From Chiloscyllium plagiosum (lineage: Eukaryota), in the NCBI RefSeq assembly GCF_004010195.1, contig NC_057731.1:41526677-41590676 (forward strand): DNA of 64,000 nucleotides, written 5' to 3'. A program made the translations under genes and the position numbers. Under the pieces are notes generated by a model that saw only the letters and a program-made list of their open reading frames with translations, ran no database searches and was not told where the DNA came from. Below, piece by piece: positions 1,454 to 60,810 of this stretch. Every line of letters begins with the position of its first letter. Positions within the stretch are counted from its first letter, which is position 1.

Positions 1454-1458
1454 GAGAG

Positions 1459-9763: not shown

Positions 9764-9976
9764 AAGTTAAAAATCACACATCACCAGGTTATAGTCCAAC
9801 AGGTTTATTTGGAAGCACTTGCTTTCGGAGCGCTGCTCTTTCATCAGTATCACTGCACAACCATCTGATGAAGGAGCAGCGCTCCGAAAGCTAGTGCTTC
9901 CAGCTAAACCTGTTGGACTATAACCTGGTGTTGTGTGATTTTTAACTTTGTCCACCCCAATCCAACTCCAAATCAT
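9764..9976. mobile_element. Palindromic PLE-end derivative (84-bp inverted arms 9764-9847 and 9865-9948)
   Basis: Directly visible inverted repeat with a 17-bp spacer; the arms contain a hammerhead motif. Confidence 0.85.
9862..9896 (+). ncRNA. Minimal type-I hammerhead ribozyme motif (CUA cleavage triplet)
   Basis: cat-CTGATGA-a-ggagc-agc-gctcc-GAAA-G/C-TA-gtg. Stem I is cat/gtg, stem II has 5 bp, and stem III is the palindrome AGCT. Confidence 0.7.
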
Positions 9977-11034
9977 TCAAAACATGAGCTCTCATGACAA
10001 AGAAACTGCATACAGCCTATTTTAAAAAACAAATTAACAATATTCTCTTTTCTAGAAATAACAGGAAAATATTGGTCTGTGAGTGATGAAAAAAAAAGCT
10101 TTTTCCATCAAAACGTTTTCAAATTGTAAGAAATGTTGATAAATAGTCATCACCATGACACTTTACTAACAATGTGTTGCTTTAGAATTTACTTGGGGAG
10201 CAATTTTGGTCAATGGAATAACAACACAGGGTCATTTTTGAAATGAACAACTACAGTCAATTCAATACTGCTCCTCAGTGCTGTCAATCTGATTGCCCCC
10301 AATGCAGCAAGATGTGTTTTGCATTGATTATGCCATTGCATTGTTTGCAACTAACGTTCTGAACATTAGTCTGTAAAATATAGCTAGTGTTTTATAAAAT
10401 GAATGACAAAGCATTAAGTTAAAGTATGCAAAAAATACACACAAGAAGCAAGGGAATCTGCTCCTTCCTCCTCTCATTTCTCCTTCAGTGATTAATTTGT
10501 TCTTTTGCCACCTTCAGTAACAACTCATGTTCAAATTGGTCACTGATACATTTTTCAATGCTTCTTAGCAAGTCTCCTCATTTTTATTAATATATTGCTT
10601 TTTCAACAGCACTTTAGTCCAGGTATTTTAACAGTAAACAATGATGGGTAATTTAGCTTTGGAATCCATAAGCTATGCCATTCTCACAAGGCGTTATTCA
10701 GTGAAGTGTTAAACTCACACGAATGCCTCATTCACAGTCTAATTTTGTAATACTGTTTCCACCATTTTCCATTACTATGCAATAAGTCAGTCATTAACAA
10801 AGGGCAAATGCTCATTTTCACTTGATGAGCCATTTTAGTTTGTCACCAAGCAATTCACTTGCAATTTGTGCAGTATAGGCTTCTTTTGGTGCACTGGTAG
10901 TGTAACCTTGGAGCTAGAAGACCCACCCACTCTAGAGCTGTGTTGCAAGGTATCCGAACAGGTTGATGAAAATATCTGCAATTTGTGACATGAATTAATT
11001 GGCTGCAGAGCCTTGCTCAGGAGGGTAAGTCACT

Positions 11035-11390
11035 TTTTTCAATTCTCTCGTGGGATGTGAGCATTGCAGGCAAGACCAGCATTCATTCCCCTTCCCCAGA
11101 TGGTATCTAATGTAGGTACACCATGCTGTTAGATATGCATTTCCGAGATTTTGACCGTGTGGCCGTAAAGACAGGGTATACCACTCCAATCCATCAGGGG
11201 AGGGAGCTTGCAGAAGATGGTGCACCCACCTTTGTTTCCTTTGTACTTTTCAATGGGAGAGCTCACAGATTTGGAAGGTGCTGTCAAAGAGGCTGGGATA
11301 GTTCCTGTAATGTACCTTGTAGATAAGTACACACTGCTGCCACTGTATCCCAGAATTGCATGTTTCGGATGGTGGATGGGGTGAGGATTA
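11035..11390 (-). mobile_element. 3' fragment of an L2/CR1-like LINE family (same family as 26720-27455)
   Basis: ttctctcgtgggatgtgagcattgcaggcaagaccagcatt is the reverse complement of the family 3' end (cacatcccacgagtgaataaaaaa). Confidence 0.6.
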
Positions 11391-11399
11391 AACAGGAGG

Positions 11400-12565
11400 C
11401 TTAGGCTTGTAAGGAGAGCTACATAGTCCACACGAATGATACTGGAAGTAAAAATGATTAAACTATGTGTCAACTTGCCATGAGTTTCATAAGTTGAAAG
11501 TTTGAAGGATATTCGAATTAAAGTGTCTATAATGATAGGGGGACTATAGGGTCAAAAAGGACAACGAGAAACTATAGTTTCTGTTGGTGATTCCAGAACG
11601 TAGGGCATAATCTTAAAACCAAAGCAAGAGATATTTAGGAGTAAACTGAGGAAACCCTTTTTCACAGAAAAAGAAATAGTGAGAATCTATAACTCTTTTC
11701 CCCAAAGAATGTGAACATTGGATCCAAATGAAATGGATCCAAATTGGATCCAAGAATAAGACTGATATATTTTTGTTAAGTATCAAGGGATATGGAGGCA
11801 AATGGGAGCTATCTTTGTCAATGTATTTTCCTTTAAGGATCTACACTTTGTGCATCTCTATCAGACCCCTCCTTAGCCTTCTCTGCTCAAAGGAAAACAA
11901 CCCCAGCATTTTAGTCTCTCCTAACAGCTGAGTCACTGCAGCTCAAGCAACATCCTGGTGGATCTCTTCTGCATCCTCTCTAGTGTGATCACATCCTTCT
12001 TATTGTCCCTCTGATCCTCCGTACTTACTGGATCCTTCAAGTCTATCCTTCCAAAAAGGAACCTTACACTTTTCAGGATTGAATTCCATTTACCGCTGTT
12101 CAGCCGTTTATATTAACCAGTTGTCTAAGGTTCGTCTCCTGCTACTTACAATACCACTAATTTTTGTGCCATCTGAAAGTTTACAGATCATACCTCCTGC
12201 ATTCATATCAAGATCATTAATGTACACTGCAAACAGCAAGAGACACAGCACTGTTTCCAGTCCAAAATCACCTTTCAACCATCACCATCTACTTCCTGCC
12301 ACTAAGCCAATTTTGAATCCAATTTGCCGAACTGCCCTGGATCCAATGGGCTCTTGGTTTCTTAATCTGTCTGCTATGCAAGACCTTGTCAAAAGCCTTA
12401 TTGAAGCCCATGTAAACTACATCAACTGCATTATCCCCATCTACACACCTAGGCACCTCCTCAAAAATTTTACATTTGCTAGACATGATCTCTCCCTTAC
12501 AAAACCGTACTGATTATTCTTGATAAATCATTGCCTGTCCAAGTGGAAGTCAATGCTGTCCCTCA
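11400..12565. mobile_element. Decayed CR1 fragments in both orientations
   Basis: Plus-strand 3' fragment at 11400-11810. Minus-strand RT fragment reads VDVVYMGFNKAFDKV..NWIQNWLSGRK. Confidence 0.7.
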
Positions 12566-13317: not shown

Positions 13318-13440
13318 AGAAGAAAGTGAGGTTTGCAGTTGCTGGAGATCAGAGTGGAGAGTGTGGTGTTGGAAAAGCACAGCAGGTAAGACAGCATCCG
13401 AGGAGCAGAAGAATCGACGTTTCAAGCATAAGCGCTTTAC
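13318..13440 (-). mobile_element. PLE terminal fragment (gaggagaaagtgagg...aatcgacgtttc family)
   Basis: Same sequence family as the copies at 22408, 36393, 52480 and 55930; hammerhead truncated or degenerate. Confidence 0.75.
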
Positions 13441-16490: not shown

Positions 16491-18620
16491 AGCCCATGAT
16501 ATGCAATTATGATGCGATTAGGCAAGATTTAGGATGCATAGTTTGGGGAAGAAAACTGCAGGGAATGGACAAACTGGAAATGTGGAGCTTATTCAAGGAA
16601 TAGCTATTGTGGGTCCTTGGTAAAGTATATACCTATCAGGCAGGGAGGTAATTGTTGAGAGAGGGAGCCATGCTTTACTAAAGAAGTTGAAACTCTTGTC
16701 AAGATGAAGAAGAAGGCTTATGTGAGGACGATGCGTGAAGGGGGCTTTGAGAGTTATAAGTTAGCCAGAAAAGATCTAAAGAGAGGGCTAAGAAGAGCCA
16801 GGTGGGGACATGAGAAGTTGTTGGCGGATAGGATCAAGGAAAACCCTAAGGCCTTCTATCGGTATATCAGGAATAAAAGAATGACCAGAGTAAGATTACA
16901 GCCAATCAAAGATTGTGGTGGGAAGTTATGTGTGGAATCTGAGGACATAGAGGAAGCACTTAATACATACTTTTCGTCAGCTTTCACATTGGAAAAGGGC
17001 AATGTTAGTGAGCATACAGAGATACAAGCTACTAGATTAGATGGGATTGCGGTTTTCAAAGAGTAGGTTTTAGCAATTTTGGAAGATCTGAAAATAGATA
17101 AGATCTCTGGGCTGGATGGGATTTATCCTCGGATTCTCTGGGAAGCCAGAGAGGAGATTTCATGGCCTTTGGCTTTGATCTTTATGTCATCATTGTCAAC
17201 AGGAATAGTGCCAGAAGACTGGAGAATAACAAATGTTGTTCCCTTATTTAAGAAGGGGAGTCGGGACAACCCTGGAAATTATAGGCCAGTGAGCTTTACT
17301 TCGGTTGTGGGTAAGGTGTTGGAAAAGGTTATAAGAGAGAGGATTTATAATCATCTGGAAAGGAATAATTTGATTAGGGATAGTCAACACGGTTTTATGA
17401 AGGGTGGGTTTTGCCTCACTAACTTTATTGAGTTCTTTGAGAAGGTGACAGATCAGGTGGATGAAGGTAAAACAGTTGATGTGGTGTATATGGGCTTCAG
17501 TAAGGCGTTTGATAAGGTTCCACAAGGTAGGCTATTGCACAAAATACAGAGTTTTGGGATTGAAGGTGATTTAGTGGTTTGGATCAGAAATTGGCTCGCT
17601 GAAAGAAGACAGAGGGTGGTGGTTGATGGGAAATGTTCACCCTGAAGCTCAGTTGCCAGTGAGGTGCCGCAAGCATCTGTTTTGGGGCCACTGCTGTTTG
17701 TTATCTTTATAAATGATCTGGATGTGGGCATAGAAGGATGGGTTAGTAGATTTGTAGATGACACTAAGGTAGGCAGATTTGTGGATAGTGCCGAAGGATG
17801 TGGTGGGTTACAGAGGGAAATAGATAAGATGCAGAGCTGGGCTGAGAAGTAGCAAATGGAGTTTGAAGTGGAAAAGAGTGAGGTAATTCCCTTCAGAAGA
17901 AGTAACAGGAATGCAGATTACTGGGCTATTGGTAAAATTCTTGACAGTATAGATGAACAGAGAGATCTCAGTGTCCTGGTGCATAAGTTCCTGAAAGTTG
18001 CCACCCAGGTTGATACGGTTATTAAAAAGGCATATGGTGTTTGGCGTTTATTGATAGAAGGATTGAGTTTTGGAACCACGAGGTCATGCTTCAGCTATAC
18101 AAGACATTGGTAAGGCTGCACCTAGGTATTACTTACGGTTCTGGTCACCGCATTATAGGAATGATGTGGAAACTTTGGAAAAGGTTCAGAGAAGCTTTAC
18201 TAGGATATTGTGTGGTACGGAAAGAAGGTCGTGTGAGGAAAAGCTGAGAGAACTGAGGCTGTTTTCATTGGAGAGAAGAAAGTTGAGAGGCGACCTAATT
18301 GAGACGTAGAGTAGTAGAGGCATAGAATGGCCTGCTTGTAACAGTAGTAGACTCGCCGACGTTAAGGGCATTTAAATGGGCATTGGACATACATATGGAT
18401 AATAATGGAACTATGTAGGTTAGATTGGCTTCAGATTGGTTCCACAGGTCGGCACAACATCGAGGGCCGAAGGGCCTGTACTGCGCTGTAACATCCTATG
18501 TTCTATGCTCTGTGTTCTTTGTTCTATGTTCTGTGTTCTATGTTCTGTGTTCTATGTTTCTATGTTCTATGTTCTGTGTCCTATGTTTCTATGTTTCTAT
18601 GTTCTGTGTTCTATGTTCTA
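16491..18620 (+). mobile_element. 5'-truncated CR1/HER1-like LINE (ORF2 RT region) with expanded tail
   Basis: IKENPKAFYRYI, PEDWRITNVVPLFKKG, GNYRPVS, SQHGF, FSKAFDKV, LGPLLF, FVDDTK and RGDLIET motifs, with stops and frameshifts. Confidence 0.93.
18497..18620 (+). repeat. (TATGTTC)n-like 7-8 bp tandem tail of the CR1
   Basis: Visible tandem tatgttc/tgtgttc/tatgtttc units. Confidence 0.9.
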
Positions 18621-22330: not shown

Positions 22331-22407
22331 CAAAAATAAATGAGATAGCAGTTGAGAAAAGCCATCTTGAATAATGGGAATGAAAGTCAGTTAAGATGTG
22401 AAAAGGA

Positions 22408-22798
22408 GAAAGTGATGACTGTGGATGCTGGAGATCAGTCGAAAAGTGCGGTGCTGGAAAAGCACAGCAGGTCAAGCACCATCCGAGGAGCATGAGAGTC
22501 GACATTTCGAGCATAAGCCCTTCATCAGGAATGAGGAAGGGGAAGGGGGATGAGAGATAAATACAGGGGTAGGGTGGTGGTGGCGGTTGGGGGAGGATCT
22601 AACGAGGGATTCACAGAGGGAATGATCTCTGCGGAATGCAGATCAGGGTTGGAAGGGAAATATATCTCTAGTGGTGGGTCTGTCTGTAGGTGGCAGAAAT
22701 GGCAGAAGCTAATGCACTGTGTGCTGGAAACATCAACTCTCCTGCTCCTCAGATGCTGCCTGGCCTGCTGTGCTTTTCCAGCACCACAATTGTCAACC
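22408..22798. mobile_element. PLE insert with inverted ends, an internal ORF fragment and an imperfect TSD
   Basis: Inverted terminal segments. Internal minus-strand FCHLQTDP..IFPS-like PLE ORF piece. Flanks are aagatgtgaaaagga (22393-22407) and aagatgtgataaagga (22799-22814). A hammerhead core lies on the minus strand at about 22496-22532. Confidence 0.8.
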
Positions 22799-23236
22799 AA
22801 GATGTGATAAAGGACAACTGATTCACAGTCGCCTAATTTGCCTCAATGCTAAAGTCCATTTCCATCTCGGAATTTACAATTACATCTATGAGACAACTAC
22901 CTTTTTAAAAAGTACAAAAAATCCCATGAAGACAAGACCTATAAGTCAGCTCCACTTTTGTACCAAAACTCCTGATCCTTCTCTCTCTAGAAATACATGT
23001 ATTTTCTTATTGAATTGAATTGATTTCTCTCTCAGTAGTGTTCACTAATCAGTTTATCCATAAACTGATTGTCATTTGAGTGGATGAAACAACACAGGAG
23101 GTGGTGAGAGAAGACCAAGTACACTTCTAAAGGGAAGGAACTAAGACTGATATGTTTTTGTTTGCACAATAGATTAAATTCACTAACAGAGTGGAAACAG
23201 ACCTTTTGACCCAACAAGGGCAGTCACTCTCACCTC

Positions 23237-25320: not shown

Positions 25321-25662
25321 TTTTTAAAGCAATTCCCTGCAATGTCATACATTATTCTGACTGTTAATTTGCAATGAACAATAGAACCATGCAACACACA
25401 TCATTGAAAGAAGCCATTTGTCCAATGTGTCTCTACAGCTCTCTGTTGGAGCAATCCAAAACCAATCCCATTAGTTCATATTCTCCCTCTAATAATTGTC
25501 CAACTTTCCCTCGATAGAGTCTATCCTATTTTAACTAATCATCGAGACAAATTCCCACCTCTACCAGCCTTCTATATATTTCTCCTATTCTCTCTCAACT
25601 ATTTTGTGATCATTTAAAACTGATGATCCCTGAACACTAGCTATCGAACCAGAGAAATTGTC

Positions 25663-25805
25663 GGAAAATCCAAGAAACTGTGGATGCTGGAACTCATAAC
25701 TCTTCTGAAGAAGGTTCACTGGACTCGAAACGTTAATTCTGCTTTATCTCTACAGATTCTGCTAGACCTGCTGGGTTTTTCCAGCAATTTCTGTTTTTGT
25801 TTAGA
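25663..25805. mobile_element. Short PLE-end insert within a minus-strand CR1 fragment
   Basis: Hammerhead-like ctgaagaaggttcactggactcgaaacgtt; flanks agaaattgtc and agaaactgtc. Confidence 0.65.
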
Positions 25806-26199
25806 AGAAACTGTCTTTCCTTTCTGACTGCTTCAGAACTCAGCATACTTGTAAAAAGCTTTACTAAATTTCCATTGGTCGTCTCTGATTCAGTGGAAGT
25901 AAGTCCATCATCACAACTGTAGTGTCTTAATCCTAACATTATTCTGGTAAATTGTTATTGGATATTCTAAAAATGGCTTAATGCTTTCTCAAGAGCACGG
26001 TTGACAAAACGACATACATTACCCTAACTCAGACCTACCCAATATTTTGTGTTGATTCATAATTAATTCTTAAATGTGTGGACTTTATACTTCTCCTTAA
26101 AAATTCTAACCTTCTATTAGTTTTTTAATGGGATGATACAAAAAATATTTTGAGTTACCAGAAGTGTTATGGGCTTCTGATCAAATAAAACAATCTATT

Positions 26200-32694: not shown

Positions 32695-33369
32695 ACAGAT
32701 TAATGCAGATTGAGGAACCACTCTCCTGAACAGTATTCCCCACTTTGGTAGACTGGTATATTTAGGTAGACTGAATCTTTCTTGCCTCACCTGAAGCTGA
32801 AATAATAGCATCCAGGAGAGACGAAACCCTTCAGTGGCCACTAATTAATCACTTAATGGCATCAGTTGGTCGTTGGGCAGGAAGATGGGAGTTTGGTTCT
32901 TCCTGTCTAGAACTCAATTCAGCTGAAGGTGGGAATTTTACAAAGTTCTGGATCACTCTAAACCCAGAAGATTCTGTAAAATGTCAAGATGTTTCTATAA
33001 AAGATCTACAGAAAGAAAATACTTGCTCTCATGTAGAGGGAAAAACTAGAGGCCATCATCGTGAGATAACAAGGAATTGGGACATCAGGAGAAATAAGTC
33101 TTTACGCAAAGAGTGGTGGGAATGTGGTGTTCGTCACCCCTGGGTATGGCTGAAGTGAATAGTAAAAATGAAATGAAGAGAAAATTAGACAAACATTTCA
33201 GGGAAAGCATTGGGGTCAGTTTAGATTAAGAAAAACAAGAAGCTAGGGTGGACCAGTTGGGCCAAATGGCCTGTTCTGTGCCTTATATTCTATATGATGC
33301 TATGTAAACTCAGCAGTAATTAGAAGCTGGGACTTTCCTAGTCTGCATAGCTCAGTAACATTGAAACTG

Positions 33370-33570
33370 AAGAACAGGACTGCAGGTGCTGGCAATCTGA
33401 AATAACAACAGGAAACGCTGGAGAAACTCAGCTGATCTACCAGCATCGGTGGTGAAAGAATGAGTGAACGTTTCGACTCATATTCAACTGAAAACATTAA
33501 CGCTGTTTTTTTCTCTGTCTACAGATGCCAGACTTGCTGGGTTTCTCCAGCACTTTCTGCTTTGAATTTC
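33370..33570. mobile_element. Older palindromic PLE-end insert
   Basis: Inverted arms (gctggagaaactcagc and gctgggtttctccagc); gctcagta is repeated at 33350 and 33571. Confidence 0.65.
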
Positions 33571-34344
33571 GCTCAGTACGTCTGAGACAGGAGAAGGTTC
33601 TGATTTATGAGTGAAATTAGCATTGCAGCATCTGCAGCAGAATGAAAAACTGGTTCCTTTTCCACATAGCCATCTATCATTGGTTGAAGAAAAACTGAAA
33701 CAGCATTTAAAAAGTGCAAGAATAATATGGTTTGACTGTGATCGGCTCTGATGAGAAAAGGAGGGGCTTCAGTCTAAAAAAGAATGGTTTCAGACATTTG
33801 AGAATTACTGTCCACGTGCAACTCATTAGGTAGAAGAGAAAATGCTGGTCTTAAATCACCTTAATAAAGTAAAGTTGCTTCTTATCAAAGCCTGGGGTCT
33901 GGATGAGTTCTACATCTTGAAAAAATTTACAATGTTGAGTTTCAACTACACGGCGAGGTCAGCCACAGCTAAAGTCAGTCCTTGTTCATTAGATTTGAGA
34001 ATATTATTGGCCACAAGGCAGAAAGGAAGTGGATTACTTCCTCAGTACTTGCAATAAATACTTAAAAGACATCCTGCAATAAACAAAAATATAGCCCTGC
34101 ATCTAGATAGGCTGTACTGGAGTAGAGTTAACGAACACTTACTAGGGACTAACATGTGAAAATCACAGCACATTGTATACACTTCTTTTGCTTTTAAATT
34201 GCGATTTTGCCAAATGTTCTTTCTGTTCTCATTTATTAACTAAATTTGAATTATCATGGGATTCCTAAATATTTTAACAGCTCGTCCTATCAGAACTCGC
34301 AGAAGAAATTCTATAGTATGTTCAAAAGTGAGATAGCTAAAAGC

Positions 34345-35573
34345 TTTGCAGAGCATTTACATTCTGCCCCCTAAAAAGACCCTGGGTTTCCAGTTGCCAG
34401 CCAGCCACCCATCCCCGAATCTCTTTCCAGTCCCTCCTCCTCCCATCCATCCATCTGACCGATCTCTCCTCCCATCGACCAACCAGGTCATACCAACCAC
34501 CCGTGTTCACCTGTCAGTACCTCACCGCCCCATCCCTCTCCCCATCCATAACCCTTCACCGCCACCCCCCCTCCACCTTTATCTCCAGCTTCCCCTACCC
34601 CCACTTCCATTCCTAAAGAAGGGTTATACCAAAAACGTTGACTTCTCCACCTCTTGATGCTGCCTGGCTTGCTGTGTTCTTCCAGCCTCCTGCTTGTCTA
34701 CTTTGGATTCCAGCATCTGCAGTTTCTTTTTATCTTTAACTTTAACACATCACCCTGCTCCCTGGCCAACATCTCTGTCTCAGGTTTGCTGCAATGTTCC
34801 AGCGAAGTTTGGCACAAGCTGGAAGAACAACACCTCATTATCCGCTTGGAGACCCTGCAGCCCTATCGAGTTCAATAACTTTAGGGCCTAAACTCCCCCA
34901 TGTTCTAGCCCCCTACCACACATTGCAGGTCTTGCTAGCACTTAGTGATGGTGGCTCATTGGGTAGCAAAGCTGCCTCACTGTGCTAGGGACCTGGGTTC
35001 AATTCCCAGCTCAGGTGACTGTCGGTGTGGAGTTTGCACGTTCTCCCTGTGCCTGTGTAGGTTTTCTCCCACAATCCAAAGATGTGCAGGATAGGTGAAT
35101 TGGCCATGCTAAATTGCCATTGTGTTAAGGGATATGTAGGTTAGGTACATTAATCAGGGGTAAATGTAGGGGAATGTGTCTGGGTGGGTTACTCTTCAGG
35201 GGGTTGGTATGGACTTGTTGGGCCAAATGGCCTGTTTCCATAACGTAGGGATTTTCTTCTATGGTCATTCATTCATGTCTGCCATTACACACTGCCTATT
35301 GTTAGCCACTAATAGTCTCCGTTAACAACTCTTCACCCCCCTAACCAGATCATTCCCCACTCCTTTTCTGTCCAACCGTTGTTCTATCTCTTGGGGCTCT
35401 ATCCCTCCCTATCATTTACTCCTTACACCCCTCCTATCTCCTGCACATAAACCAACATTTTTCTAGCTATCATCATTTCTGGGGAAGGGTCATCAGACCC
35501 AAAACATTAACTCTGATTTCTCTGCACAGATGCTGCCAGACCTGCTGAGCTTTTCCAGCAACTTCTGTTTCTT
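34345..35573 (+). mobile_element. Composite PLE 3' fragment(s) with GIY-YIG C-terminus, nested HE1 SINE and an 11-bp flanking repeat
   Basis: HKLEEQHLIIRLETLQP; pyrimidine-rich 3' region; degenerate hammerheads at about 34612 and about 35478; tagctaaaagc at 34334-34344 and 35574-35584. Confidence 0.8.
34945..35255 (+). mobile_element. HE1-type SINE nested in the PLE
   Basis: Box A gtggctcattgg, box B gggttcaattcc and core tgaattggccatgctaaattg. Confidence 0.88.
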
Positions 35574-36392
35574 TAGCTAAAAGCCAGGCTTCCTCTGACA
35601 CTGAGTCTTTCAGATCACTCTTTGCCTCACAGAGATCGATTTAGTACTGCGACACATGATATATCAAAGCACAATCATCACTGTGGAGATTATTTACTTG
35701 CCCTTTTTAGACATTTACATTGCACTGTAGGAGCTATGGAAAAATGACGGTCATGTTACATTTTGTCCATAGCATGCTTAACAGAGATTTATTTTGAACT
35801 TAATGGAGGTGAAATTGGCCGTTGTCAGCAGCACTAAGTGGATTTATAGGGAACCAGCTGCCTGTTGTACAGTTTGATTTTTCTTTTCTATTGGAGCATG
35901 CTTGAACTTCAGGGAGCCTGCCCTCATTCTGAGGTTGAATTGAATATCCATGTCATATTCCTATCCTGTTACTCTCCCGTAGGAATTTTGAGATACATTT
36001 GTTAATACCCTACTGTTTGTGTGCCAGGATATGAAGGGGTTGCATATAGAATTAGAAAGGATGATGGACTATATTAATCTTTATCATATTGCTCTCAACA
36101 GAATATTAGCCCAATTGTGTTAATCTATCCCAGCTACGGGGAAAGTTTCTGCTTGTTTGAGGATTCTGGTCTTATGTGTGCGTGGTTGGATCCTGGTCTG
36201 AGCTGGATTGACAACCGTTGGCTGAGGTGTCCAGAATGAAGGACACGTTCTTTACTTTGTTAGAACCCAGTCTACATCCTGAGATCTCATCACATTCCCT
36301 GAGGTGAGAAATTGGGCGTTTTGATGTTGGCAGAGGCATGTGAGCAATGAGCAACTTCCAGAACAATGCAGAGTAGGCAGATTAGGAATTCA

Positions 36393-36488
36393 GTGTTGAA
36401 ACTTTATTGCTGGAACAGCACAGCAGGTCAGGCAGCATCCAGGGAACAGGAGATTCGACGTTTCGGGCACAGGCCCTTCTTCAGGAAT
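36393..36488 (-). mobile_element. 96-bp PLE-end mini-insert with a perfect 15-bp TSD
   Basis: cagattaggaattca at 36378-36392 and 36489-36503. Confidence 0.88.
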
Positions 36489-36489
36489 C
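36452..36489 (-). ncRNA. Intact minimal type-I hammerhead ribozyme motif (GUC triplet)
   Basis: Reverse complement reads gattc-CTGAAGA-a-gggc-ctgt-gccc-GAAA-C/G-TC-gaatc. Stem I has 5 bp, stem II has 4 bp, and stem III is the palindrome ACGT. Confidence 0.8.
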
Positions 36490-38011
36490 AGATTAGGAAT
36501 TCAATCAACACGCCATCAGCCCTGTCATTGTGGAGCTTAACACTTCAGCGAATGCTCTCTCTTAACCTCACTCAGCTGAACACATGCTCAGTCTCAGGAA
36601 GGGCCCTCCACCAATGTTGCTTTCAAAAACCATCAGCTACTTGTAGGTTATTTGCTGGTCAATTTCCTCTAGATGTTGCTATGATTCTACAATTTAACAG
36701 GGTTGTTTCAAAATGTCATTTAGAGGGATGAAGGAAGTTTGCTGAATTCTGCACAAGCCAGACATGAGTTCATTCCTGGGCACTCCAGCTGGAAGAAAGC
36801 ATGGCTTGGAGAGTGAACAGAAAGCACAGAACAAGCTGCTATAACAGGGACGAGGAGGAAAAGGAGATGCTGTTATACCAGGAGGTCATTCCCATGTAAA
36901 TAATTTGAGGAGAATTTGTCCCCCCTCAGTGACAAAAAATGTGTGAGCTATCAGCATTGAAGTCCGTCACCTGTTCCAGACACAATTACAACGTGGGCAA
37001 TGAAAGTGACTCTGGTAGTGAATTGTTTTGTGGCTGGATCTTTTCAGTCTTGAGTTTGAGATAGTTACCATCCCCAGTTGCATAAAGGAGGTCACTGGAG
37101 CTCTCCACTGAGCAAGTGTAAACTATACTGTATTCTCTTTTGATGGATTGAGCACTTCCACTATTCTTGCAAGCTAATATGTTGGCTAATATGTGGTGAT
37201 TACTGAGTAAGCCATTATTCTTTTCCATTCTTCTCTGTTAATGGGACTCTGACTTGCAACTCCAGGTTACAGTGTAAGAGTTTGAATGCTGGTGAAATTC
37301 AAAAATGGTGAGGAGATTTCACTAAAAAAAAGCTTTTCGGACGGTAGGCATATTCCTCTTTGACAGAACATATTTGCAGATATTAGGGAGCTTGGAGATT
37401 GTAAGTTAACATCCAAAAGCTGAAAGCTAGCATATCTGCTCTGCCTCATGGCTTGCCAAGAGGGGAAACAGGGACAGAATTGCAGAGATTCCAAGATGCA
37501 GACGTATGCAAATATTTCATTAATTGTGGTTAGGTCAGAGAATCATTTGCCATCTGCTTTCTTTAATTGCCATGATTGTTCTGCATTGCACTTGAGTATT
37601 TAGGATGCAGAAGTGATTTTGCCTTGTTTTCATTGTGCACTGTTTTACCTTATTACGCTCAAATTGCTTTACCACAGCTGTTGAAAGCAGATTGTTTGGC
37701 TCTTTAGAATCCTTTGGGTGTTTTCTGATAGACACCTCCTGTGCTGAGTGTCCAACTCTCCCACTCATTGTCTCCATCCCTTTGGGATTTCAACACCTCG
37801 CAGTTCCTGACAGCAGCATCTGTGGCTTCAGAGGAAAGGCTTGGCACTGTCACATACCTGTAATGTTTTCTAAACACCTAGGATTTCACTGTGAAATAAA
37901 CTGCTACAGAAGAAAGTAAAATAATTCCATAAATTCTATTTAAAAACAGTCTAGTTATGAAAACATTACAGGAATTAACATTACTCCTGTTTTGCTCATT
38001 CTCAACAAGAA

Positions 38012-42020: not shown

Positions 42021-42139
42021 TGTCTCCCTCAATTTCTGACATTTCTTCATTGCTTGGCAGCCATGTCCAATGGCAGAAAATGCCCCAATCTCTTCATTAC
42101 TGAAGGAGATAAGGCTTCATTCTGCAGTCTCATCAACAA

Positions 42140-51272: not shown

Positions 51273-52479
51273 ACTGTCTGTAAGACTTTGGTCTCATATC
51301 ACATCGTATAAAATATTGCTTTGAAGAGATTTTGGCAATGTTGCTCAGGAAAGCCTTGGGTGGAGAATTAGGCAGTCTAGAATGAGGTCCTAATGGAGAA
51401 AAACATGTCATTGCTGGCTTCTGCTTGCCCTTGTAATTATGCCTAACCAAGCAATGCAATATATATGTATTGCTATCATGAATTAAACAGCACCTTGTTG
51501 CTAAGACAAGTGCCTCTTCTTGTTACGACTCAACACAGTAGAATCTGAATTCAATGAAAATCTGGAATTAAGCCTCCAATGATGATCATAAAACATTATT
51601 GGAAAAAACTCATTTGATCATTAATATCCTATGGGAAAGAAACTGCCATCTTTACTGGTCTGGCCGATATGTGACTCCAGACCCACTGCAATATGATTGA
51701 CCTCTTAACCGCCCTCTGAGTAATTAAGAATGGGTGATAAATGTTGGCCCAGCCAGAGGTGCCCTCATCCTGTAAAAAGCCCCTTAAACTCAGCATAGTA
51801 AAGAGGACTGATGACAGCCAGTCAAGTACAAGCCAACTACACCCCAACCACATGCTGCCAACGATTGGTGACTAACCCAAAATCCAGTATGACATGATCA
51901 AGTAAAAAGACTGCACTTTCAAGAGAAATATCACATCAGTTTTATTACACATCATTGCAAAGTTAACCAGAGGTAACCAAGGGTAACTATAGGAAAAGTT
52001 GCAATGTGTATTCTCTGGCCTGCGTCCAGTAAGATGGGAGCCAGTGATGTTGTGCATTGCACACCAAAAAATGCAAATATATAAGTAGGATCGTGAGCCA
52101 GTAAAATGGGAAGGTAACTTAGCAGGAAGAGAAGGGACAGATGAGAAAATATTAGATGTCGCTTAAGTGAAAATCCTGAGGTTATTATGTGTGTAAGGCT
52201 GTTGAGAGGAAATTGTGGGATTTCTCAATATCTGAGAGGTCAGAAAACATTTTGTCTGACTTAAACTTGCATTCGGGAAAATGGATTTGTAAGAACCAGA
52301 AGTGGTTAGTTATTTTCTGTAAGGATGAAAGTACCATAGAGTGTGACATTGTGACTCACCAAACAGAATGTTATAATTCCAATTTCATATTAATTTAGCA
52401 GATTTTGTCTCAACATATTAGAATTAGTCTCAGTGCACTAGAATTAATCTCAGAGCTCTTGGGACAAGAGAGGGAAGGG

Positions 52480-52799
52480 CTGAAAGTGTGTTGCTGGAAA
52501 AGCGTAGCAGGTCAGGCAGCATCCAGGGAACAGGAGAATCGACGTTTCGGGCATAAGCCCTTCTTCAGGAATGAGGAAAGCCTTTCCAGTTTAGTTCTAT
52601 CCCTCCTATAGCAGGGCAACCAGAATTGTACACAGTGCTCCAAAAATGGCCTTACCAATATTTTTTACAGCTGCAACATGTTCCCTGGATGCTGCCTGAG
52701 ATTAAGTCATGTTCCCTGGATGCTGCCTGACCTGCTGCGCTTTTCCAGCAACACATTTTCAGCTCTGATCTCCAGCATCTGCAGACCTCACTTTCTCCT
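52480..52799. mobile_element. Palindromic PLE-end insert with a 15-bp TSD, a hammerhead and a captured inverted copy of the flank
   Basis: caagagagggaaggg at 52465-52479 and 52800-52814. Hammerhead on the minus strand at 52537-52572. Segment 52582-52681 is the reverse complement of 52909-53008. Confidence 0.88.
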
Positions 52800-52854
52800 C
52801 AAGAGAGGGAAGGGGGCAAATATATTCAACTTGTTTACTGGTCAAAGATATCTG

Positions 52855-53467
52855 CATAAGGATGCTTTGCTTTTATTGGTCAGAGCATTGAGTATAGGAG
52901 TTGGGCTGACATGTTGCAGCTGTAAAAAGTATTGGTAAGGCCATTTTTGGAGCACTGTGTACAATTCTGGTTGCCCTGCTATAGGAGGGATATAACTAAA
53001 CTGGAAAGACTGTGGAAAAAAAATCACAATTCTGGAGGATTTAAGAGATTGGATTGGCTCGGTCTTTTTCCCCGCAGTGTAGGAGGCTGACGGGTGACCT
53101 TATGGAGATTTGTAACATCATGAAAGGCATAGTTAAAGTGAATAGCCAAGGTCTTTTCCACAGGGTAGGGGAGTCCAAAACCAGAGGGCACAGGTTTAAG
53201 GTAAGAGAGGAAAGATTTAAAAGAGATCTGAGGGGCAATCTTTTCACACAGAAGGTGGTGCAGATATGGAATGAACTGCCAAAGGAAATGGTAGAGGCAA
53301 GCATAATTACAACATTTAAAAGATATTTGGACAGGTACATGGATAGGAAAAGTTTAGAAAGAGCAGGGCCAAATGCAGGCAAAAGGAACTAATTCAGTTT
53401 CGGAAACCTGATCAGCGTGGACGAGTTGGACCAATGGGTCTGTTTCTGTGCTGTATGACTCTATGAC
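52855..53467 (+). mobile_element. CR1 3' fragment
   Basis: VRPFLEHCVQFWLP, LTGDLMEI and RGNLFTQKVV motifs; tail tatgactctatgac. Confidence 0.88.
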
Positions 53468-55334
53468 ACAATCAATAAGGAAAAGATGAGGCTAAGCCTG
53501 ACCATAAAGAGCTTACAGCTCTTTGGCCTGTCAGCACTTGTGGTTAAGGCACAGGTAATAAATAGCTACTCAGTTGTTGTATCAGAGGATTGTCAGCTGT
53601 CAAGGAACATTTGGAGTTAAGAAAAAGGTGGTGTCACTTTGAGAAAGGTACGAGGAGAATGAGAATGTAGAATAGGGGGCATCAAGAATGAAAGGTAGAC
53701 CCAGCTGAGAAAGGAATAATTCTGATTAGAAACATGAGGCATCATTATAACTGGTCGAGATCATTGTTTGGAAGAGGAAAGTGCAACGTGCGTTAATTTA
53801 GTAACAGCAAAGCCATGATTATTATGCCTGACTAGAAACAAAAATGAAAAGGCATTATGATCAGTTTGAGTTATGCCTGTTCTATGAGGCATTTGTTAAA
53901 TAGACTAAAGGAGCAGGACATTCTGGGCCTTGGGAAGGGAGACTTGGTGCTGGGAGTGAGGTTGAGAAAATAACTGAGAGTCACTTCAGGATGCTCCTAA
54001 TACAGCGTCACCACGGCTCAAGTTCCTCAGAGACTGGACCTGAGCAGCTGTCAGGGAAGTCAGCCTCCACTGCCCTAGTGGGCTCTCCAGAAGGCCAGCC
54101 TACCTATCAGTCTGATACTAAAGACCCTTCTTCTTCTCCGAGAGCACCTCCATGTTAAGGAACACTCTGGATTCCTAATCAGCTATAGTGCCCTCTCCTT
54201 CTGATTGGCCCAGTCTCATCTACATACCACTCACTATCCTAGATTGGATTCTGCGGGATGTACGGGACTGGAGCTGCAAGAAAAATACTGAGATTAAAGA
54301 AACACATAGGAACATGGTGTCTGCATAAAATGGCACTGAATTGGATATGGACAGCAAAATGCAATTGATGTATGAATTTTCTCACAAGAATACAATAACT
54401 CCAACAACACTCCAGCCAAAAACATTCAATCAGTCCCACACAATGACTCTCTTGAATCTATATGACAATAAATTAATGAGATTTTCTCCTAAGAAGCATA
54501 TCATGACAATGATTTAATGCTATGCACTGCTGTTGACATGATCTAATGTTTAAATATCAACAGTGCCAAACATTCTCTTCATTAATTGTCAAAGAGGCAG
54601 ATTCACCCTAAATGAGTCAATTGGATACATTTTAAAGTTCAACACCTGAATTGTTTGGGGTGTGCACAGCTCTTTATAAAGCATTTTATATCTCTGTCAA
54701 ATTCATAATGTATATGAAATTAAATATTAGTGCTCAAGAGTAAAAATGTTCAGTGACAGAAAATACAGCTGAAAGAATTTACTCTCTCCAATGTTCTCCC
54801 CTTCCCTTCCCTGATGTACAGATGCTGGAGTACATTTCAATGGTTGCCCTCTTGTACATCATCGAACTTTCAATAGAGAATCTTAACCCAACCCTAAACC
54901 TATCACATGGCTCATTCTACTCTCTATATTTGTGTTTGGGAGACCTTAATCTTACAGAAGGTGGAGCATAGCAGTACAGCCATGTGCAATTGTCGATGCT
55001 AGAGAGAATGAAGTCAAAGATGAGAATGTTTGTCGTAGATACGTGAGGCAGATGAAAAATCAGCTGATGCTACAAAAGTGGAAATAGGTATCGTTGATGA
55101 TAACTCGGATAAGGAGCAAAAAAAACTCAACCTAAGGTCAGACATGACAACAAAGCTGCAATAAATCTGGTTCTGCCTCCAATTGTTATCAGGAAGAGAT
55201 GGATTTGGAGCTAGTGAACGTGGTATATGGCGACAATGACCTAATTCTTCCGAATGTTTAGTTGGAAAATATTCCTGCTCACCTAGCAGTCTGACAATTT
55301 GGAGATAGTGGAGCAAGTAAGGAATAATGACTTG

Positions 55335-55605
55335 AAAGGCTTGTTTTTCTGATTGAGAGAGAAATATTGGCTCGGACACCAGTGATATCTCCTCTCCTCT
55401 TCTTGGAAATATTGCCATGGGTTTTGTTTTACATTCACCTGCGGAGGGCAGACAGAGATTCATTTCATCGTCTCCTCTGGATGATAGCATATTAATGCCC
55501 TGCTGTGTATACCTTGGTGTTTATGCTTCTAAAGTCTAAAGCAAAATTTAAACACACAACTTTCTTACCCAGAGGCAAATGTGCTACCACTTGAGTCACA
55601 GCCAG
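55335..55605 (-). mobile_element. SacSINE1/Deu-domain SINE remnant
   Basis: tgccatgggttttgttttacattcacctg core and gtgctaccacttgagtcacagc head in reverse complement. Confidence 0.65.
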
Positions 55606-55929
55606 CCCACTATGCTTCGGAGGTACAGTATGGTAATGTTTGCATTTGATATCTCTGAAAGACAGCAAGTGTGATTCTCTGATCACAATGAGATAGAGAA
55701 GAATGGAATTAGATGAGTGCCTGGTTTCTCCTTCTGTTTCTATTCAATTGATGCTTGAGTATACTCTTGGAGGCTTACTAGCTATTGTATATTTTTTAGG
55801 CATTTTTACAAACTTTTAAATGCCTCTACAGTCACAAAATGTTTGCATCATGTTTAACCTTGCTCAGTGTCTCGTACCTTCTGTGGTATTTGTTTACTTT
55901 GCTTTGAGTCAACAGACATTCTTAACTAG

Positions 55930-56296
55930 GAGGAGAAAGTGAGGGCTGCAGATGCTGGAGATCAGAGCTGAAAATGTGTTGCTGGAAAAGCGCAGCAGGT
56001 CAGGCAGCATCCAAGGAACAAGNNNNNNNNNNNNNNNNNNNNNNNNNNNNNNNNNNNNNNNNNNNNNNNNNNNNNNNNNNNNNNNNNNNNNNNNNNNNNN
56101 NNNNNNNNNNNNNNNNNNNNNNNNNNNNNNNNNNNNNNNNNNNNNNNNNNNNNNNNNNNNNNNNNNNNNNNNNNNNNNNNNNNNNNNNNNNNNNNNNNNN
56201 NNNNNNNNNNNNNNNNNNNNNNNNNNNNNNNNCAATTCTCCTGTTCCTTGGATGCTGCCTGACCTGCTGTGCTTTTCCAGCAATACATTTTCAGCT
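55930..56296. mobile_element. Palindromic PLE-end insert with a perfect 17-bp TSD spanning an assembly gap
   Basis: cagacattcttaactag at 55913-55929 and 56297-56313; inverted arms flank the Ns. Confidence 0.85.
56023..56232. other. Assembly gap (210 N)
   Basis: Run of N characters. Confidence 1.
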
Positions 56297-57964
56297 CAGA
56301 CATTCTTAACTAGTCAAGCACAGTGAACATAGATCAGTGACCAGACTCTCATCATTGAACACACTACAATCAACACTGCACTAACTACTTGAGTATCAGT
56401 GAGTGATCACAGCACAGAATACTGCTGTACTTTAAATGTTCATAAAAATATTACGGGGGGTCCCCTATTTTAAAAAGTCTGACTTAAGAGCAGTTGCACT
56501 TACGATTACGACTCCATACCTGGGCAAAGTTTTAAAGAACCAACATACAAACACTTCCTGAGCTTATGAAGGGCTACTTTATATTGTCCTGCAGAGTGCT
56601 CCAACTTTTGAACAGACTCAGGAAACAGAACTCGTACGTACAAACTATACAACTACAAATATACAAATCTGTGCCCAGCAGAAAGGATATTTCTATGAGA
56701 ATGATCCTTGAGGTTTTCAATGGTTTTACAGACACCTTTCTTTGGCGTCTTTATCTTTCAGGATATAGGATGCAAAAACTTTAGTGGTTGGGATATTCCC
56801 ACAAAGAAATGTCAGGTATCAAATGTCTATTTCATTCACTACCTGGCTGTTGCAGGGGCACCAGATCACACTGGTCTGGGCATTATGCACTAACCTATCA
56901 CCAACAGTACACACGCACAACTGCTCAGCCACTGTTAGCAAACAGAAATAAATTTAAAAATCCCCTCAGCACTCAGTTAATGTTTCAATGCAATGTTATC
57001 TCTCTGGGTTTAATATAATGCTGTGACACACTATTGATTTCATATCCCTCTATCTACTAATTAACCATTGTATTTATTGTCATTGTAGTATATATGAGGT
57101 ATAGATCTGGAAATTATGTGTTCTGCTTGGCAAGCCAATAAAAATACACTGAAAGCAGCCTTCAATGTCACAAGTAGTATATATCACCATGTACCATACA
57201 TCAGCACAGTTGATGGCTCACTACCTCAGTTAACAATTCTTTATTTTAAGCATAGTTGCACTGATGAAATAAGACAAGCAACCTCTCTCCTAATATGCTG
57301 AAACTTTACAGATACGGTGACCTTCGTGTCCTCGGGCAGGCCTTTTCTTATAATGTGAAATAAAACTATCAGCGCCCAGTCATCACAAATCATCTGTGGG
57401 ATTTTCCTTCTTGTCAGTAAGGTATTCCTGCAGAAGGATAAAATGTCACTGGGTGTGTCGTTTTACGCCGGCTTTTGTAAAACACAGGGGTCTTTCAAAC
57501 TCTCACATTCATACAAACAGAAAAGGGATTGTAACAGCAGCCATACTTGGGATTAATCTAAACTCTCTGAGGAATGCAGAACGTCCACAGGTAGGAGAAA
57601 GGGTGGGGGAAGGGATGTGGAAGGTCAGACTAAGAATTTATAGCAAACATACTCAGGAAAGGGTTTCTAAAATGGCACCTTAAACAGATACTGGAGAAAA
57701 ATCACCAGTTGACTTCAGATGCATCCTCAAAAGCTTTAAGCATGTTTTTCAGGGAGGAAACCAGATTTTGGAATTTGAATGCAGGGACTGGATCTTGAAA
57801 TGTAACATTAAAATGTTCATCGAGTTTAGATTTCAAAGTTTCAAGGATTTTAGTTTTGCAAACCCATGAAATGGCTGTTCAAGACACTCCTCATGTTCAG
57901 CAACAGTAATAGGAAGCACAATGTTGCGATATTCTTTCACAGAGACAGGAATTAGTTCAACATA

Positions 57965-58420: not shown

Positions 58421-59984
58421 GGAAATGAATGTAACACTGAATATTCACCCCAGGGCCTGTTTCAGTCCTCATTTACTACCTTAAACAACTACACTTTTTG
58501 TAAGAGTTAATAGATGGCCAATTATTGCAGGACCAATAACTAAGACCTCAACTGCCACAGCCAGCCTAACTATAAGCACAGGCACAATTTTCTCTCTTTT
58601 GCTTTCGAAGAGAATTACTCCTGCAGGGGTAAATATAATTTCACAGAGTAACAGCAATGCTCAGGTGCACTGTTCAGTTGTGTCAACCTTGACAATGAGT
58701 TGCAGCAACCATTACAATTGAACTCACCCCTATTATCACCCAAAGTCCACAAATGTTTATTTTCCAGCACAGGGACTTGGGGGAGGGAGGTGAGAATCTC
58801 ATTCAGGTGCCTGGCTGGAGAGGTGGTGGGAGACCCTTGATCTGCCTCTTTTTGAGAAGGCCTGATGAAGCCCAGCCAGTGAGTGGGGGGACCAGCTATG
58901 GGTTCTCACTTGAAATAAAGACCCTGAGGCAGAGATCTCACCTACTGAGAACTGCTGCCAATCACAGGCCAGCTGCTCTTGAGCTTGGCACTACCACCAG
59001 CAAGTCATGGCTGCTTCAGAAGGATAAGCTCTGGAATGTTGTATGAGTCATGTTGAGTCTGTGGCAGGTGGTTGTCATGTGTTCAAGGGCTGGTAAGAGG
59101 GAGAGAAAAATTACTCTCCCAAGGCCTCCTTTATTTCCCAAAGTCCAGTCCCTCGATCAGGCCCTGAGTGACAAGCTGGCTGCACAGCTTTAGCAGCTAT
59201 ACGTGTCACATGACCACAGGCTTACCTGCAGCTGGATTAACAATGGGATGAGATCCTGAGGTGGTCTTTCATTGGAAACTAAGGAAGTCAGTTCATGACA
59301 GGAAGGGAAGCTTGCCCATCGATCTTTAAGCCTCTGAACTCTGGCAGAGTCGGGAAGGCCATGGGGGTTCAGATCCTGTCCTTCCCATCACCATGCTCAC
59401 CCCCAAAAGGACAGAATATTCCACCTTTCCACTGGGAGATACTTCCCTGCTTGGGGTTTTGTGGCATTCCACTGTTGGCCTAGCTGACAACGGGACAGAT
59501 CAGAGATTGAACTGTGACTGTAGTCTCCATCTTAGATTATTATCTGATATGGAATACCTAGTGGGAATAACTGAATTCAGAATGACGACAGCTTCATGTT
59601 CAGCAGTCAGTCTCGAGCGATTTAGTCAGCACCTTGCTGTAGCTCATTTCAGACTGTGACCATACATAAAACACCACTGCTTATCAGAGATTAGTAAATA
59701 CATTATAGATGTGCAATATCTTGCAGTTAAATGTAGTAAGTTGGGTTTAACATAGTGCCTTTTTGCCAAGTAATTTATAATGTGGATTAAAGGCTAATTC
59801 CTCAAGGTTTGTCTAGCTATCTTTTCTTTAATGTATACATTATAAACAATATATACATTACATGAGCCTAATACATACATTCTTTAAATTGTGACTCCTG
59901 AAGTCAAATAGAAGTAACTTTCCACCAGTTGTGAAGTCCATTGCACATTGAAAATTATTAGATGTCTTACACCATTTTATAGTT

Positions 59985-60605
59985 TCTGTCACATTCCAAC
60001 ATATTGCCACACTGTCATCTATTAGTAAGGACAAGGTTACACTGGAGGTTGTTGGTAGCTTCACATATCTAGGCTTCACAATCACTTGCAATCTGCTGAA
60101 GTCAACATACACATTACAAAAGTGAGTTTTGAGAAAATCTGTGGCTCAGGTTGAGTTTTGGATGTAGATTTGCTCGCTGAGCTGGAAGGTTCATTTCCAG
60201 ACATTTCGTCACCCTACTAGGTAACATCTTCAGTGGGCCTCCAGTGGGTAAAGCGCTGTTGCTGATTCCTGCTTTTTATTTGTATGTTTGGGTTGACATC
60301 ACCAATGCAAAGAAACCCATTTGTAGCAGTGCTTCACCTGGAGGCCCACTGAAGATGTTACCTAGTAGGGTGACAAAACGTCTGGAAATGAACCTTCCAG
60401 CTCAGCAAGCAAACCTACATCCACATTACAAAAGCTCAGTGCTATGTCCAAGTTGACAAAGAGAGTTTGGAACAACAACAGTCTGAGAACACAAATGCAG
60501 GTTAACAAAGCTGTGTCCTCTGCACGTTCCTCTACAATGGTGAGACCTGAACAACATAAACTGGGCAGGAGAACAACTCCAACAATTTACACCTTCACTA
60601 CTTCA
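59985..60605 (+). mobile_element. Decayed RTE LINE fragment split by a PLE insert
   Basis: LEVVGSFTYLGFTI before the insert; AMSKLTKRVWNNN and FLYNGET after it. Confidence 0.7.
60123..60421. mobile_element. Palindromic PLE-end insert (distinct family) with a 13-bp TSD and paired hammerheads
   Basis: Arms at about 60159-60244 and 60338-60423. cacattacaaaag at 60110-60122 and 60422-60434. Motif cca-CTGAAGA-t-gttacc-tagtag-ggtgac-GAAA-(c/t)GTC-tgg. Confidence 0.85.
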
Positions 60606-60671
60606 AACTATTAAGAGATTGTGGGAAGAAATTTACATGTCAGCAAAACAGCTGCAATGAACTTAGCCACT

Positions 60672-60810
60672 ACAATTCTGAAGAAGTGTCATTGAACCCA
60701 AAATTTTGACTTTGATTTCTCTCCACAGATGCTGGTAGACCTGCTGAGCTTTACTAACAAGTTCTGTTTTTGTTTCTGATTTCTAGCATCAGCAGTTCTT
60801 CTGATTTTTA
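60672..60810 (+). mobile_element. Degenerate PLE terminal fragment
   Basis: ttctgaagaagtgtcattgaacccaaaa...cagatgctggtagacctgctgagc. Confidence 0.6.

Follow-up and report, generated by a model that had tools for sequence, protein, structure and literature searches.

Twelve inserts in a 64-kb window of Chiloscyllium plagiosum DNA (the whole stretch analysed, 64,000 nt) are very probably dead, extremely 5′-truncated 3′ ends (pLTRs) of EN+ Penelope-like retrotransposons (PLEs) from three or more lineages; each probably formed anew at a double-nick insertion. An initial annotation had placed 11 loci in the window, and all 11 are present at roughly the coordinates that it gave; a twelfth, related to its family A and absent from it, lies at about 34560-34735, which gives 12 loci in 64 kb, or about one per 5 kb. 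The annotation's reading of these loci as hammerhead-bearing ends of PLE type is supported; minimal hammerhead, inverted arms, one-sided tail and flanking duplication (TSD) are present. Each of these four features is already published for PLEs, and the inserts reveal neither a new element class nor a host function; their layout is most likely one already described, not that of a new kind of mobile element.

Hammerhead motifs

We scanned both strands with a strict hammerhead descriptor (CTGANGA, one extra nucleotide, a stem II of at least 4 bp, and GAAA) and obtained 6 matches in the window versus 0.2 ± 0.4 (maximum 1) in 15 dinucleotide shuffles. Five of the six fall inside loci of the initial annotation; the sixth, at 2731 on the minus strand, lacks U16.1 and is taken as a chance match. 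A complete core is present in 6 of the 11 earlier-listed loci, and these cores share features that lie outside the descriptor: U16.1-H17 and G10.1-C11.1 in all six and, in five, no fewer than 3 of the 4 pairs that open stem I. The claim that all copies keep CTGANGA through GAAA holds for these six loci but not for 13318 and 33370, which are truncated within the hammerhead, for 35478 and 60672, which have broken core bases, or for 55930, which has no visible core because an N gap (56023-56232) covers the place where it would lie.

Stem III is ACGT in families A, C and D and AGCT in family B; it is a perfect 4-nt palindrome in 4/6 complete cores, as had been proposed for the least-decayed copies, and is CpG-decayed in the other two. 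Also in agreement with the initial annotation, the core persists across lineages whose stems differ: the first stem I pair is C-G in family A, U-A in C, A-U in D and U·G in B; pair 15.2-16.2 is C-G or G-C across families; and stem II, of 4-7 bp, differs in sequence between families. These differences come from three independent lineages only, too few for a statistical test of covariation. In the complete cores, 40-103 nt separate N17 from the outer end. Mismatches number 2/44 in the core versus 30/208 downstream in family A, and 2/33 versus 14/168 in family C, comparisons that carry a selection bias and are a poor test for dead copies.

The main text of PMC4209133 describes minimal hammerheads of metazoan PLEs as forming families with covarying stems, an extra nucleotide that separates position 9 from 10.1, G10.1-C11.1 and a palindromic 15.2-16.2; because all four features described there are present here, we assign the motifs to this minimal PLE type. 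They are predicted to self-cleave as a dimer or with protein assistance. Searched up to E = 5, the window gives no match to an Rfam hammerhead family, despite roughly one element end every 5 kb, and repeats of this class are often missed by annotation pipelines. The Rfam match to MIR825 at 9790-9924 (46.9 bits, gathering threshold 160) reflects the hairpin alone.

Families and lineages

The initial annotation had distinguished four sequence-distinct families. Families A and C share a block of about 30 nt with 84-94% identity, and a single profile made from A and C arms aligns all arms of both; we therefore regard A and C as homologous and count three lineages, not four. Families B and D match only themselves.

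Insertion architecture

The head-to-head arrangement reported earlier is found in 7 of the 11 earlier-listed loci (9764, 22408, 25663, 33370, 52480, 55930 and 60123), and 5 of all 12 loci are single arms. The inverted units are 143-394 nt long and consist of arms that are usually stumps of 40-170 nt. Five of the seven carry a one-sided extension, or tail (32, 41, 37, 36 and 37 nt), a diagnostic trait that the initial annotation did not mention. We scored TSD support at each of the 12 loci against 150 random controls: duplications of 12-18 bp are well supported at five loci (0-1/150 controls reach the score), three are marginal (33370, 5/150; 9764 and 25663, 11/150 each), and at four loci no flanking duplication is supported in this comparison. 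The initial annotation's account of 11-17 bp flanking duplications in many copies is in this respect overstated.

In family A, the unit at 22393..22810 (22408) has a 12-bp TSD with 1 mismatch (22393-22404 / 22799-22810); its left arm, on the minus strand, bears the 32-nt tail and a complete core with C3 at 22528, and its right arm begins at about GAAA. An arm of this unit appears to be internally deleted. The unit at 52480-52799 has a perfect 15-bp TSD (52465-52479 / 52800-52814), an intact hammerhead in the left arm (minus strand, C3 at 52568) and a 37-nt tail on the right arm; the TSD is proven by the empty site in a contig of a related species (organism B), where 52464 is joined to 52800. 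The unit at 55913..56313 (55930) has a perfect 17-bp TSD (55913-55929 / 56297-56313), a 36-nt tail on the left arm, and the N gap as its centre. For 52480 and for 55930 alike, independent contigs of organism A pass from unique flanking sequence into the unit. The single arm at 13318..13440 (minus strand, with tail) is 5′-truncated within the hammerhead, has no CTGANGA, and yielded no TSD, and that at 36378..36503 (minus strand, without tail; 36393) keeps an intact hammerhead with C3 at 36484, has its 5′ end 4 nt upstream of C3, and is flanked by a perfect 15-bp TSD (36378-36392 / 36489-36503). The A-related single arm at 34560..34735 (plus strand, with tail) has two broken core bases and no supported TSD.

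In family C, the unit at 25653..25815 (25663) has a weak 10-bp TSD with 1 mismatch, a left arm that is nearly the tail alone, and a right arm with a complete core (plus strand, C3 at 25705); in the unit at 33350..33578 (33370), both arms are truncated within the hammerhead, the left arm is longer by 41 nt, and the perfect 8-bp TSD is marginal. The single arms of this family lie on the plus strand at 35470..35573 (35478; without tail, two core bases broken, no supported TSD) and 60667..60810 (60672; with tail, G12 changed, no TSD found). An apparent 12-bp duplication at 35478 was dismissed, as 27/150 controls match it and the upstream sequence resembles the element interior. The family B unit at 9760..9970, whose outer boundaries and TSD are uncertain, has a right arm with a complete core (plus strand, C3 at 9865) and about 18 extra nt, and a left arm whose core lacks U16.1 and G10.1; the two arms meet almost precisely at the core. 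The family D unit at 60123-60422 (60105..60434 with its 18-bp TSD, 1 mismatch) has a 37-nt tail on the left arm and a 7-bp stem II; its left-arm core is complete (minus strand, C3 at 60233), and G12 is changed in its right arm.

The centres of 22408 and 52480 differ, and that of 55930 is masked by the gap. The centre of 52480 holds an inverted copy (52579..52681, minus strand, 100/103 identical) of the downstream flank at 52909-53011, after which 21 nt of the arm are copied again (52679-52699); the two arms of the unit differ at 3/56 positions, and the right one matches the left arm of 55930 with 98% identity. Since the centres vary, and one of them contains captured flanking DNA, each fold-back was probably assembled as it inserted and not propagated as a mini-element. 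An arm identity of 157/160 for 55930 was set aside, as the figure counts Ns.

Copies elsewhere

In each sequencing run, 430-657 contigs terminate at 52799 or 55931, beyond which the flanks are AT-rich and unrelated, and this fixed outer end is common to hundreds of other copies in three species. Joints in other copies also recur at the short end, 55966-55967; both outer ends are thus seen repeatedly. Among the 15 joints listed of 2741, nine connect a left arm whose end lies at 52560-52575 with an arm of opposite orientation that is entered at varying points. Joints with their end at 56234-56239 resemble cut-site starts but were dismissed because Ns in the reference lie just upstream. Family A patterns matched neither metagenome contigs (0) nor viral contigs (0), and these collections gave no parent copy of the partial-tandem pLTR-ORF-pLTR form.

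Coding remnants

A candidate remnant of the Neptune linker between RT thumb and Zn finger, containing a stop and a frameshift, lies in one arm of the 22408 unit at 22583..22708 on the minus strand and adjoins the 3′ non-coding sequence directly. Its translation is identical to the Neptune1_Ap row of the PMC8557442 supplement at 13/29 positions, ungapped and by eye, and it is likely a remnant of a Neptune ORF on the strength of this by-eye match; neither of two database searches, a protein search (no match among 2 candidates) and HMMER, gave a homologue to add to it, and Pfam gave no match. The sole HMMER match, P0001, is a repetitive secreted-type protein, and we consider it spurious because it gave no local alignment. 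Across 179 of the window's 185 ORFs that reach 70 aa, Pfam detected no PLE RT or GIY-YIG domain; its only matches are to RVT_1 and endonuclease-phosphatase outside the elements, and low-complexity matches in a 33-bp array. With 12 loci and a near-total absence of coding sequence, the elements are abundant and mostly non-coding, as the initial annotation held.

Discussion

The inserts resemble the insertion units of EN+ PLEs (Penelope/Poseidon, Neptune; PMC3846280, PMC8557442) in their head-to-head inverted ends, a 30-40 bp extension at one end, a TSD, heavy 5′ truncation, and a hammerhead about 100-200 nt from the 3′ end: PMC8557442 describes PLE units with a 30-40 bp tail and an adjacent inverted truncated copy, and PMC3846280 describes an inverted pLTR with a 31-bp tail and an 8-10 bp TSD in Adineta. 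They differ in that both arms are usually 40-170 nt stumps, in their density of about one per 5 kb, and in their supported TSDs (12-18 bp here versus 8-10 bp in Adineta, with one paper as the length reference). Like the minimal hammerheads of Xena, Poseidon and Neptune described in the main text of PMC4209133, those studied here have a short stem I, fall into several families per genome, are mostly solo copies, and include opposite-strand pairs 100-700 bp apart; that main text, however, names cases from fishes, coelacanth, Xenopus and reptiles, and not the present families. To a large extent the copies fit the ordinary PLE truncations that the initial annotation had named as counting against its reading, except that their truncation points do not look random.

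The transposition cycle of PLEs is still described as not understood (PMC8557442, PMC11167929). In the Poseidon element of Anolis carolinensis (PAc), two adjacent internal RT start sites define the tail, targets are AT-rich, and uncleaved RNA is the dominant template (PMC11167929). Following this biochemistry, we propose that the element protein would nick both DNA strands 12-18 bp apart and that the RNA end would be copied from one nick or from both; the two alternative outer ends would correspond to two internal reverse-transcription start sites, and copying would begin 40-103 nt downstream of the predicted cut site and pass back through the uncleaved hammerhead, usually stalling nearby. The PAc start sites were shown in vitro, whereas those proposed here are read from insertion ends. 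To judge from the anatomy of the units, priming at both nicks would produce two inward cDNAs that end-joining repair could unite into a head-to-head unit, and the same repair may leave templated filler, of which the 103-nt copy of flank at 52579 would be an example. In the present copies the hammerhead would be a passenger; selection would have kept it in the parent elements, in which it is predicted to act with the aid of protein or as a dimer joined by the palindromic stem III, and the copies in the genome would then decay, mostly at CpG. As material the inserts are of modest value: insertions that are young, confined to one species and matched by an empty site in a relative are many, and could show where reverse transcription starts, where it stops and how the inverted arm forms.

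The initial annotation had suggested a distinct fold-back class. Such units would be non-autonomous, MITE-like mini-elements, transcribed and copied as entire palindromes with a PLE protein acting in trans; the 12 loci in 64 kb with almost no coding sequence, the similar sizes of the inverted units (143-394 nt), the apparent internal deletion in 22408, and the sufficiency of pLTR sequence for trans-mobilisation (PMC3846280) fit this reading. We nevertheless consider it improbable: the layout matches the published EN+ PLE insertion unit, within a family, units vary in their centres and in the length of their arms, the centre of 52480 copies its own flank, the listed joints in other copies vary, and 5/12 loci are single arms. 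Highly improbable is an origin from non-LTR retrozymes, in which hammerhead-processed circular RNAs are put back into the genome. No head-to-tail hammerhead repeat of the kind that feeds retrozyme circRNA is found in the window (7 tandem rows and profile matches), where the ends are solo or head-to-head with a tail; the motifs are minimal, not canonical; and the ends lie 40-103 nt from the cut site, with sequence kept on both sides of it. These observations stand against real likenesses to metazoan retrozymes, which are non-coding and PLE-related and share type I hammerheads, low GC and long TSDs (PMC7229834), and which a 2026 preprint derives from PLE pLTRs and finds in one chondrichthyan genome (bioRxiv 10.64898/2026.07.22.740005).

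Self-priming or template switching of a single cDNA would leave the element identity unchanged and alter only the joining step. Palindromes at inverted junctions led to this proposal for rotifer PLEs (PMC3846280), and the family B arms do meet almost precisely at the core; yet in 5/7 units the arms begin at different outer ends, with the tail on one, the 52480 arms differ at 3/56 positions while the right one is nearly identical to the left arm of 55930, and the PAc protein cuts both strands and extends them in vitro, so that we hold this route to be doubtful, if a serious candidate. That the inserts are chance motifs or assembly artefacts has a negligible probability: one strict match does arise by chance, one unit contains an N gap, and 4/12 loci have no TSD, but the shuffle comparison (6 matches versus 0.2 expected) and the contig evidence (independent organism A contigs into 52480 and 55930, and the empty site in organism B) refute it.

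Taking the inserts as PLE ends made at double-nick insertions, we tentatively raise the possibility that these genomes preserve a very large natural record of PLE integration, that the 5′ edge of hammerhead stem I, and not the cut site, is where cDNAs preferentially stop, and that unrelated lineages place both RT start sites by a common RNA geometry: a 6-7 bp stem whose 3′ strand falls within the tail, some 11 nt past the short end and 20-21 nt ahead of the long end. When the 3′ module was folded, z-scores across 9 arms were weak (+0.7 to −2.3), and no compensatory change was found in its 14 predicted pairs (7 A/C arms). If the idea is true, the hammerhead region would mark the start of the copied RNA or an RT stall, and the tail stem would be a general PLE start signal. 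The 5′ ends lie near the upstream edge of the hammerhead, away from the cut site.

Hammerhead cores and lineages

All 11 hammerhead loci reported in the initial annotation are present in the window (family A at 13318, 22408, 36393, 52480 and 55930; B at 9764; C at 25663, 33370, 35478 and 60672; D at 60123), and we found a twelfth locus absent from that list, an A-related arm with a tail and a core broken twice (~34560–34735). The claim that every copy keeps the CTGANGA..GAAA core holds for 6 of the 11: copy-by-copy inspection finds complete cores at 22528, 36484, 52568, 9865, 25705 and 60233; the motif is truncated internally at 13318 and 33370; core bases are broken at 35478 and 60672; and the expected core position of 55930 falls in an N gap. 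A strict descriptor, requiring CTGANGA plus a single additional base, a stem II no shorter than 4 bp and then GAAA, gave six matches vs. 0.2 ± 0.4 in 15 dinucleotide shuffles; five of the six lie inside listed elements, and tolerating one stem mismatch added 25705. The match at 2731 lacks U16.1 and was dismissed as chance. Further hammerhead features, not required by the descriptor, are also present: U16.1 is followed by C, A or U in all six complete cores, and at least three of the first four stem I pairs are formed in five of them. The proposed 4-nt stem III palindrome is perfect in four complete cores and CpG-decayed in two. An Rfam search of the window returned no hammerhead match.

The four families proposed as sequence-distinct reduce to three independent lineages, because A and C are homologous (a common block of ~30 nt at 84–94% identity, alignable across the whole end) and B and D match only themselves in the window comparison. 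The core is indeed constant while the stems differ between lineages (first stem I pair C-G in A, U-A in C, A-U in D and U·G in the B copy; stem II lengths of 4, 5, 5 and 7 bp, the longest in D), but the lineages are too few for covariation statistics. Across seven A and C arms, mismatches to the majority number 5/77 in core columns vs. 76/379 downstream; within C alone they number 2/33 vs. 14/168, no clear difference. This comparison, set beforehand as one that could refute the proposal, is a weak test, since dead copies need not keep the core and copies were chosen for having one.

The hammerhead-bearing ends are real and ordinary for their class. The accessible text of PMC4209133 describes minimal hammerheads in Penelope-like elements (PLEs) of fish, coelacanth, frog and reptile, with several families per genome and copies mostly solo or in opposite-strand pairs 100–700 bp apart; these metazoan hammerheads have the same four features as those found here. 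Retrozymes derived from PLE ends (pLTRs) appear in one chondrichthyan genome in the available portion of bioRxiv 10.64898/2026.07.22.740005, and are defined as tandem repeats in that of PMC7229834. Our literature search, judged from listings and without Repbase/Dfam, found no publication devoted to these particular families, which does not establish their absence from print.

Arm architecture and insertion sites

Head-to-head inverted ends were confirmed at 7 of the 11 loci, with the strand that carries the hammerhead running outward in both arms. Missing from the earlier description is a one-sided extension: in five of the seven inverted units the outer end of one arm extends past that of the other, by 32, 41, 37, 36 and 37 nt; in B the extension is ~18 nt with an uncertain boundary, and at 25663 the left arm is hardly more than the extension. 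Extracts of PMC8557442 and PMC3846280 include an inverted truncated copy, a one-sided tail and target-site duplications, and the tail is explained, for PAc, in those of PMC11167929. The flanking duplications claimed for many copies are well supported at 5 of 12 loci, marginal at three and unsupported at four. The supported ones are 15 bp (36393), 15 bp (52480) and 17 bp (55930), all perfect, and 18 bp (60123) and 12 bp (22408), each with one mismatch; each score was reached by 0–1 of 150 random controls. The sole N gap of the window (56023–56232) sits mid-palindrome in the 55930 unit, a position in keeping with assemblies breaking at such hairpins.

Several 5′ ends lie just upstream of the core C (C3): at −4 in 36393, ~−10 in the 52480 left arm and ~−1 in the B left arm. 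Among the joints listed, the commonest left-arm ends of other copies are −3 and −4, a count limited by the reference arm, which reaches only −10. A and D have no common sequence, yet the tail of each (52763–52799 and 55930–55966 in A; 60123–60159 in D) has a 6–7 nt strand complementary to the body, 10–11 nt past the short (tail-less) end and 20–21 nt before the long end. Shuffles equalled this pairing 16–31 times in 2000 for two young A arms and 133 times for D; it was not significant in six of seven other arms and showed no covariation. Support for the tail-stem geometry common to A and D is statistically weak.

The centre of 52480 (52579–52699) consists of an inverted copy, 100/103 identical, of DNA ~95–197 nt past the right duplication, after which 21 nt of the arm are copied again; no further window sequence matches over that length. 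It is a locus-specific junction created during or after insertion, a repair-type templated insertion, probably typical of end-joining repair. The 22408 left arm continues for ~300 nt and contains a broken reading frame (22583–22708), whose translation matches the Neptune1_Ap linker that separates the RT thumb from the Zn finger, with 13 identities in 29 positions (ungapped, by eye, with no E-value; available part of the PMC8557442 supplement); neither Pfam nor either of two database searches corroborated this remnant. None of the 179 window ORFs searched yielded a PLE domain (185 are at least 70 aa; the six omitted span the N gap).

Copies in other samples

For the region 52200–56600, 4 of 24 listed runs were compared: three DNA runs (organisms A, B and C; coded X1, X12 and X13) and one RNA run, which placed no reads and is left out of account. 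Organism A contigs pass from unique flank into both 52480 and 55930. In organism B, one 473-nt contig fuses 52464 straight to 52800, lacking the 320-nt element and carrying the 15-mer once; this empty site establishes that the 52480 duplication arose on insertion. X13 record 16 ends at 52464 and X12 record 14 at 55929, stops that are compatible with empty sites and seen as end points only. A single organism C contig (X13 record 22) links 54335 to 56455, so the 2.1-kb stretch 54336–56454, including 55930, is absent there.

Each DNA run contributes 120,111–169,086 records to this region, part of them on an adjoining LINE-like repeat. Summed depth, ~10^6 on arms vs. ~10 on unique flank, is no copy number, and we read it as saying only that these arms are very abundant in three species. 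At the long end, 460–657 loose contig ends per run occur at 52799 and 430–625 at 55931, with unrelated, AT-rich flanks; recurrent joints in other copies mark the short end (55966–55967). The majority sequence of the loose ends upstream of 56235 reads, in each of the three DNA runs, as an intact family A hammerhead. In nine of the 15 joints listed, out of 2741, a left arm ending at 52560–52575 meets an arm facing the other way, at points that vary. In each run, tens of contigs connect the 52799 long end with an outer end of another copy (55931 or 55966–55967) across a short unknown spacer; such tail-to-tail neighbours may reflect re-insertion next to an existing end.

Proposed insertion mechanism

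The anatomy of the units and their target-site duplications are direct observations, around which a mechanism can be proposed. An endonuclease-positive PLE protein, bound to element RNA, would nick both strands 12–18 bp apart; reverse transcription would begin at either of two internal sites ~36 nt apart and run back through the uncleaved hammerhead, mostly halting soon after. For the pair of start sites, the action on both strands and the uncleaved RNA template, the model borrows from in vitro work on PAc, which would apply here by analogy. A single cDNA would give a solo arm, and two cDNAs would probably be joined into a head-to-head unit closed by repair; self-priming is a published alternative to this joining (accessible text of PMC3846280).

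Other features of the window

Decayed LINE-type copies, presumably CR1-like, lie at 1450–4100, 16659–18100 and 23210–24290, with Pfam matches to RVT_1 (2017–2454, 2528–2806, 17067–17642 and 23210–23563) and endonuclease-phosphatase (3520–4103). A tandem array at 40040–42100 (33-bp unit, 54 copies, 78% matches) has a frame of 647 codons without a stop on its minus strand, with no credible Pfam match. A second dispersed repeat family, unrelated to the hammerhead ends, has at least four copies at ~80–87% identity (8191–8455, 34950–35262, 39337–39634 and 46974–47262).
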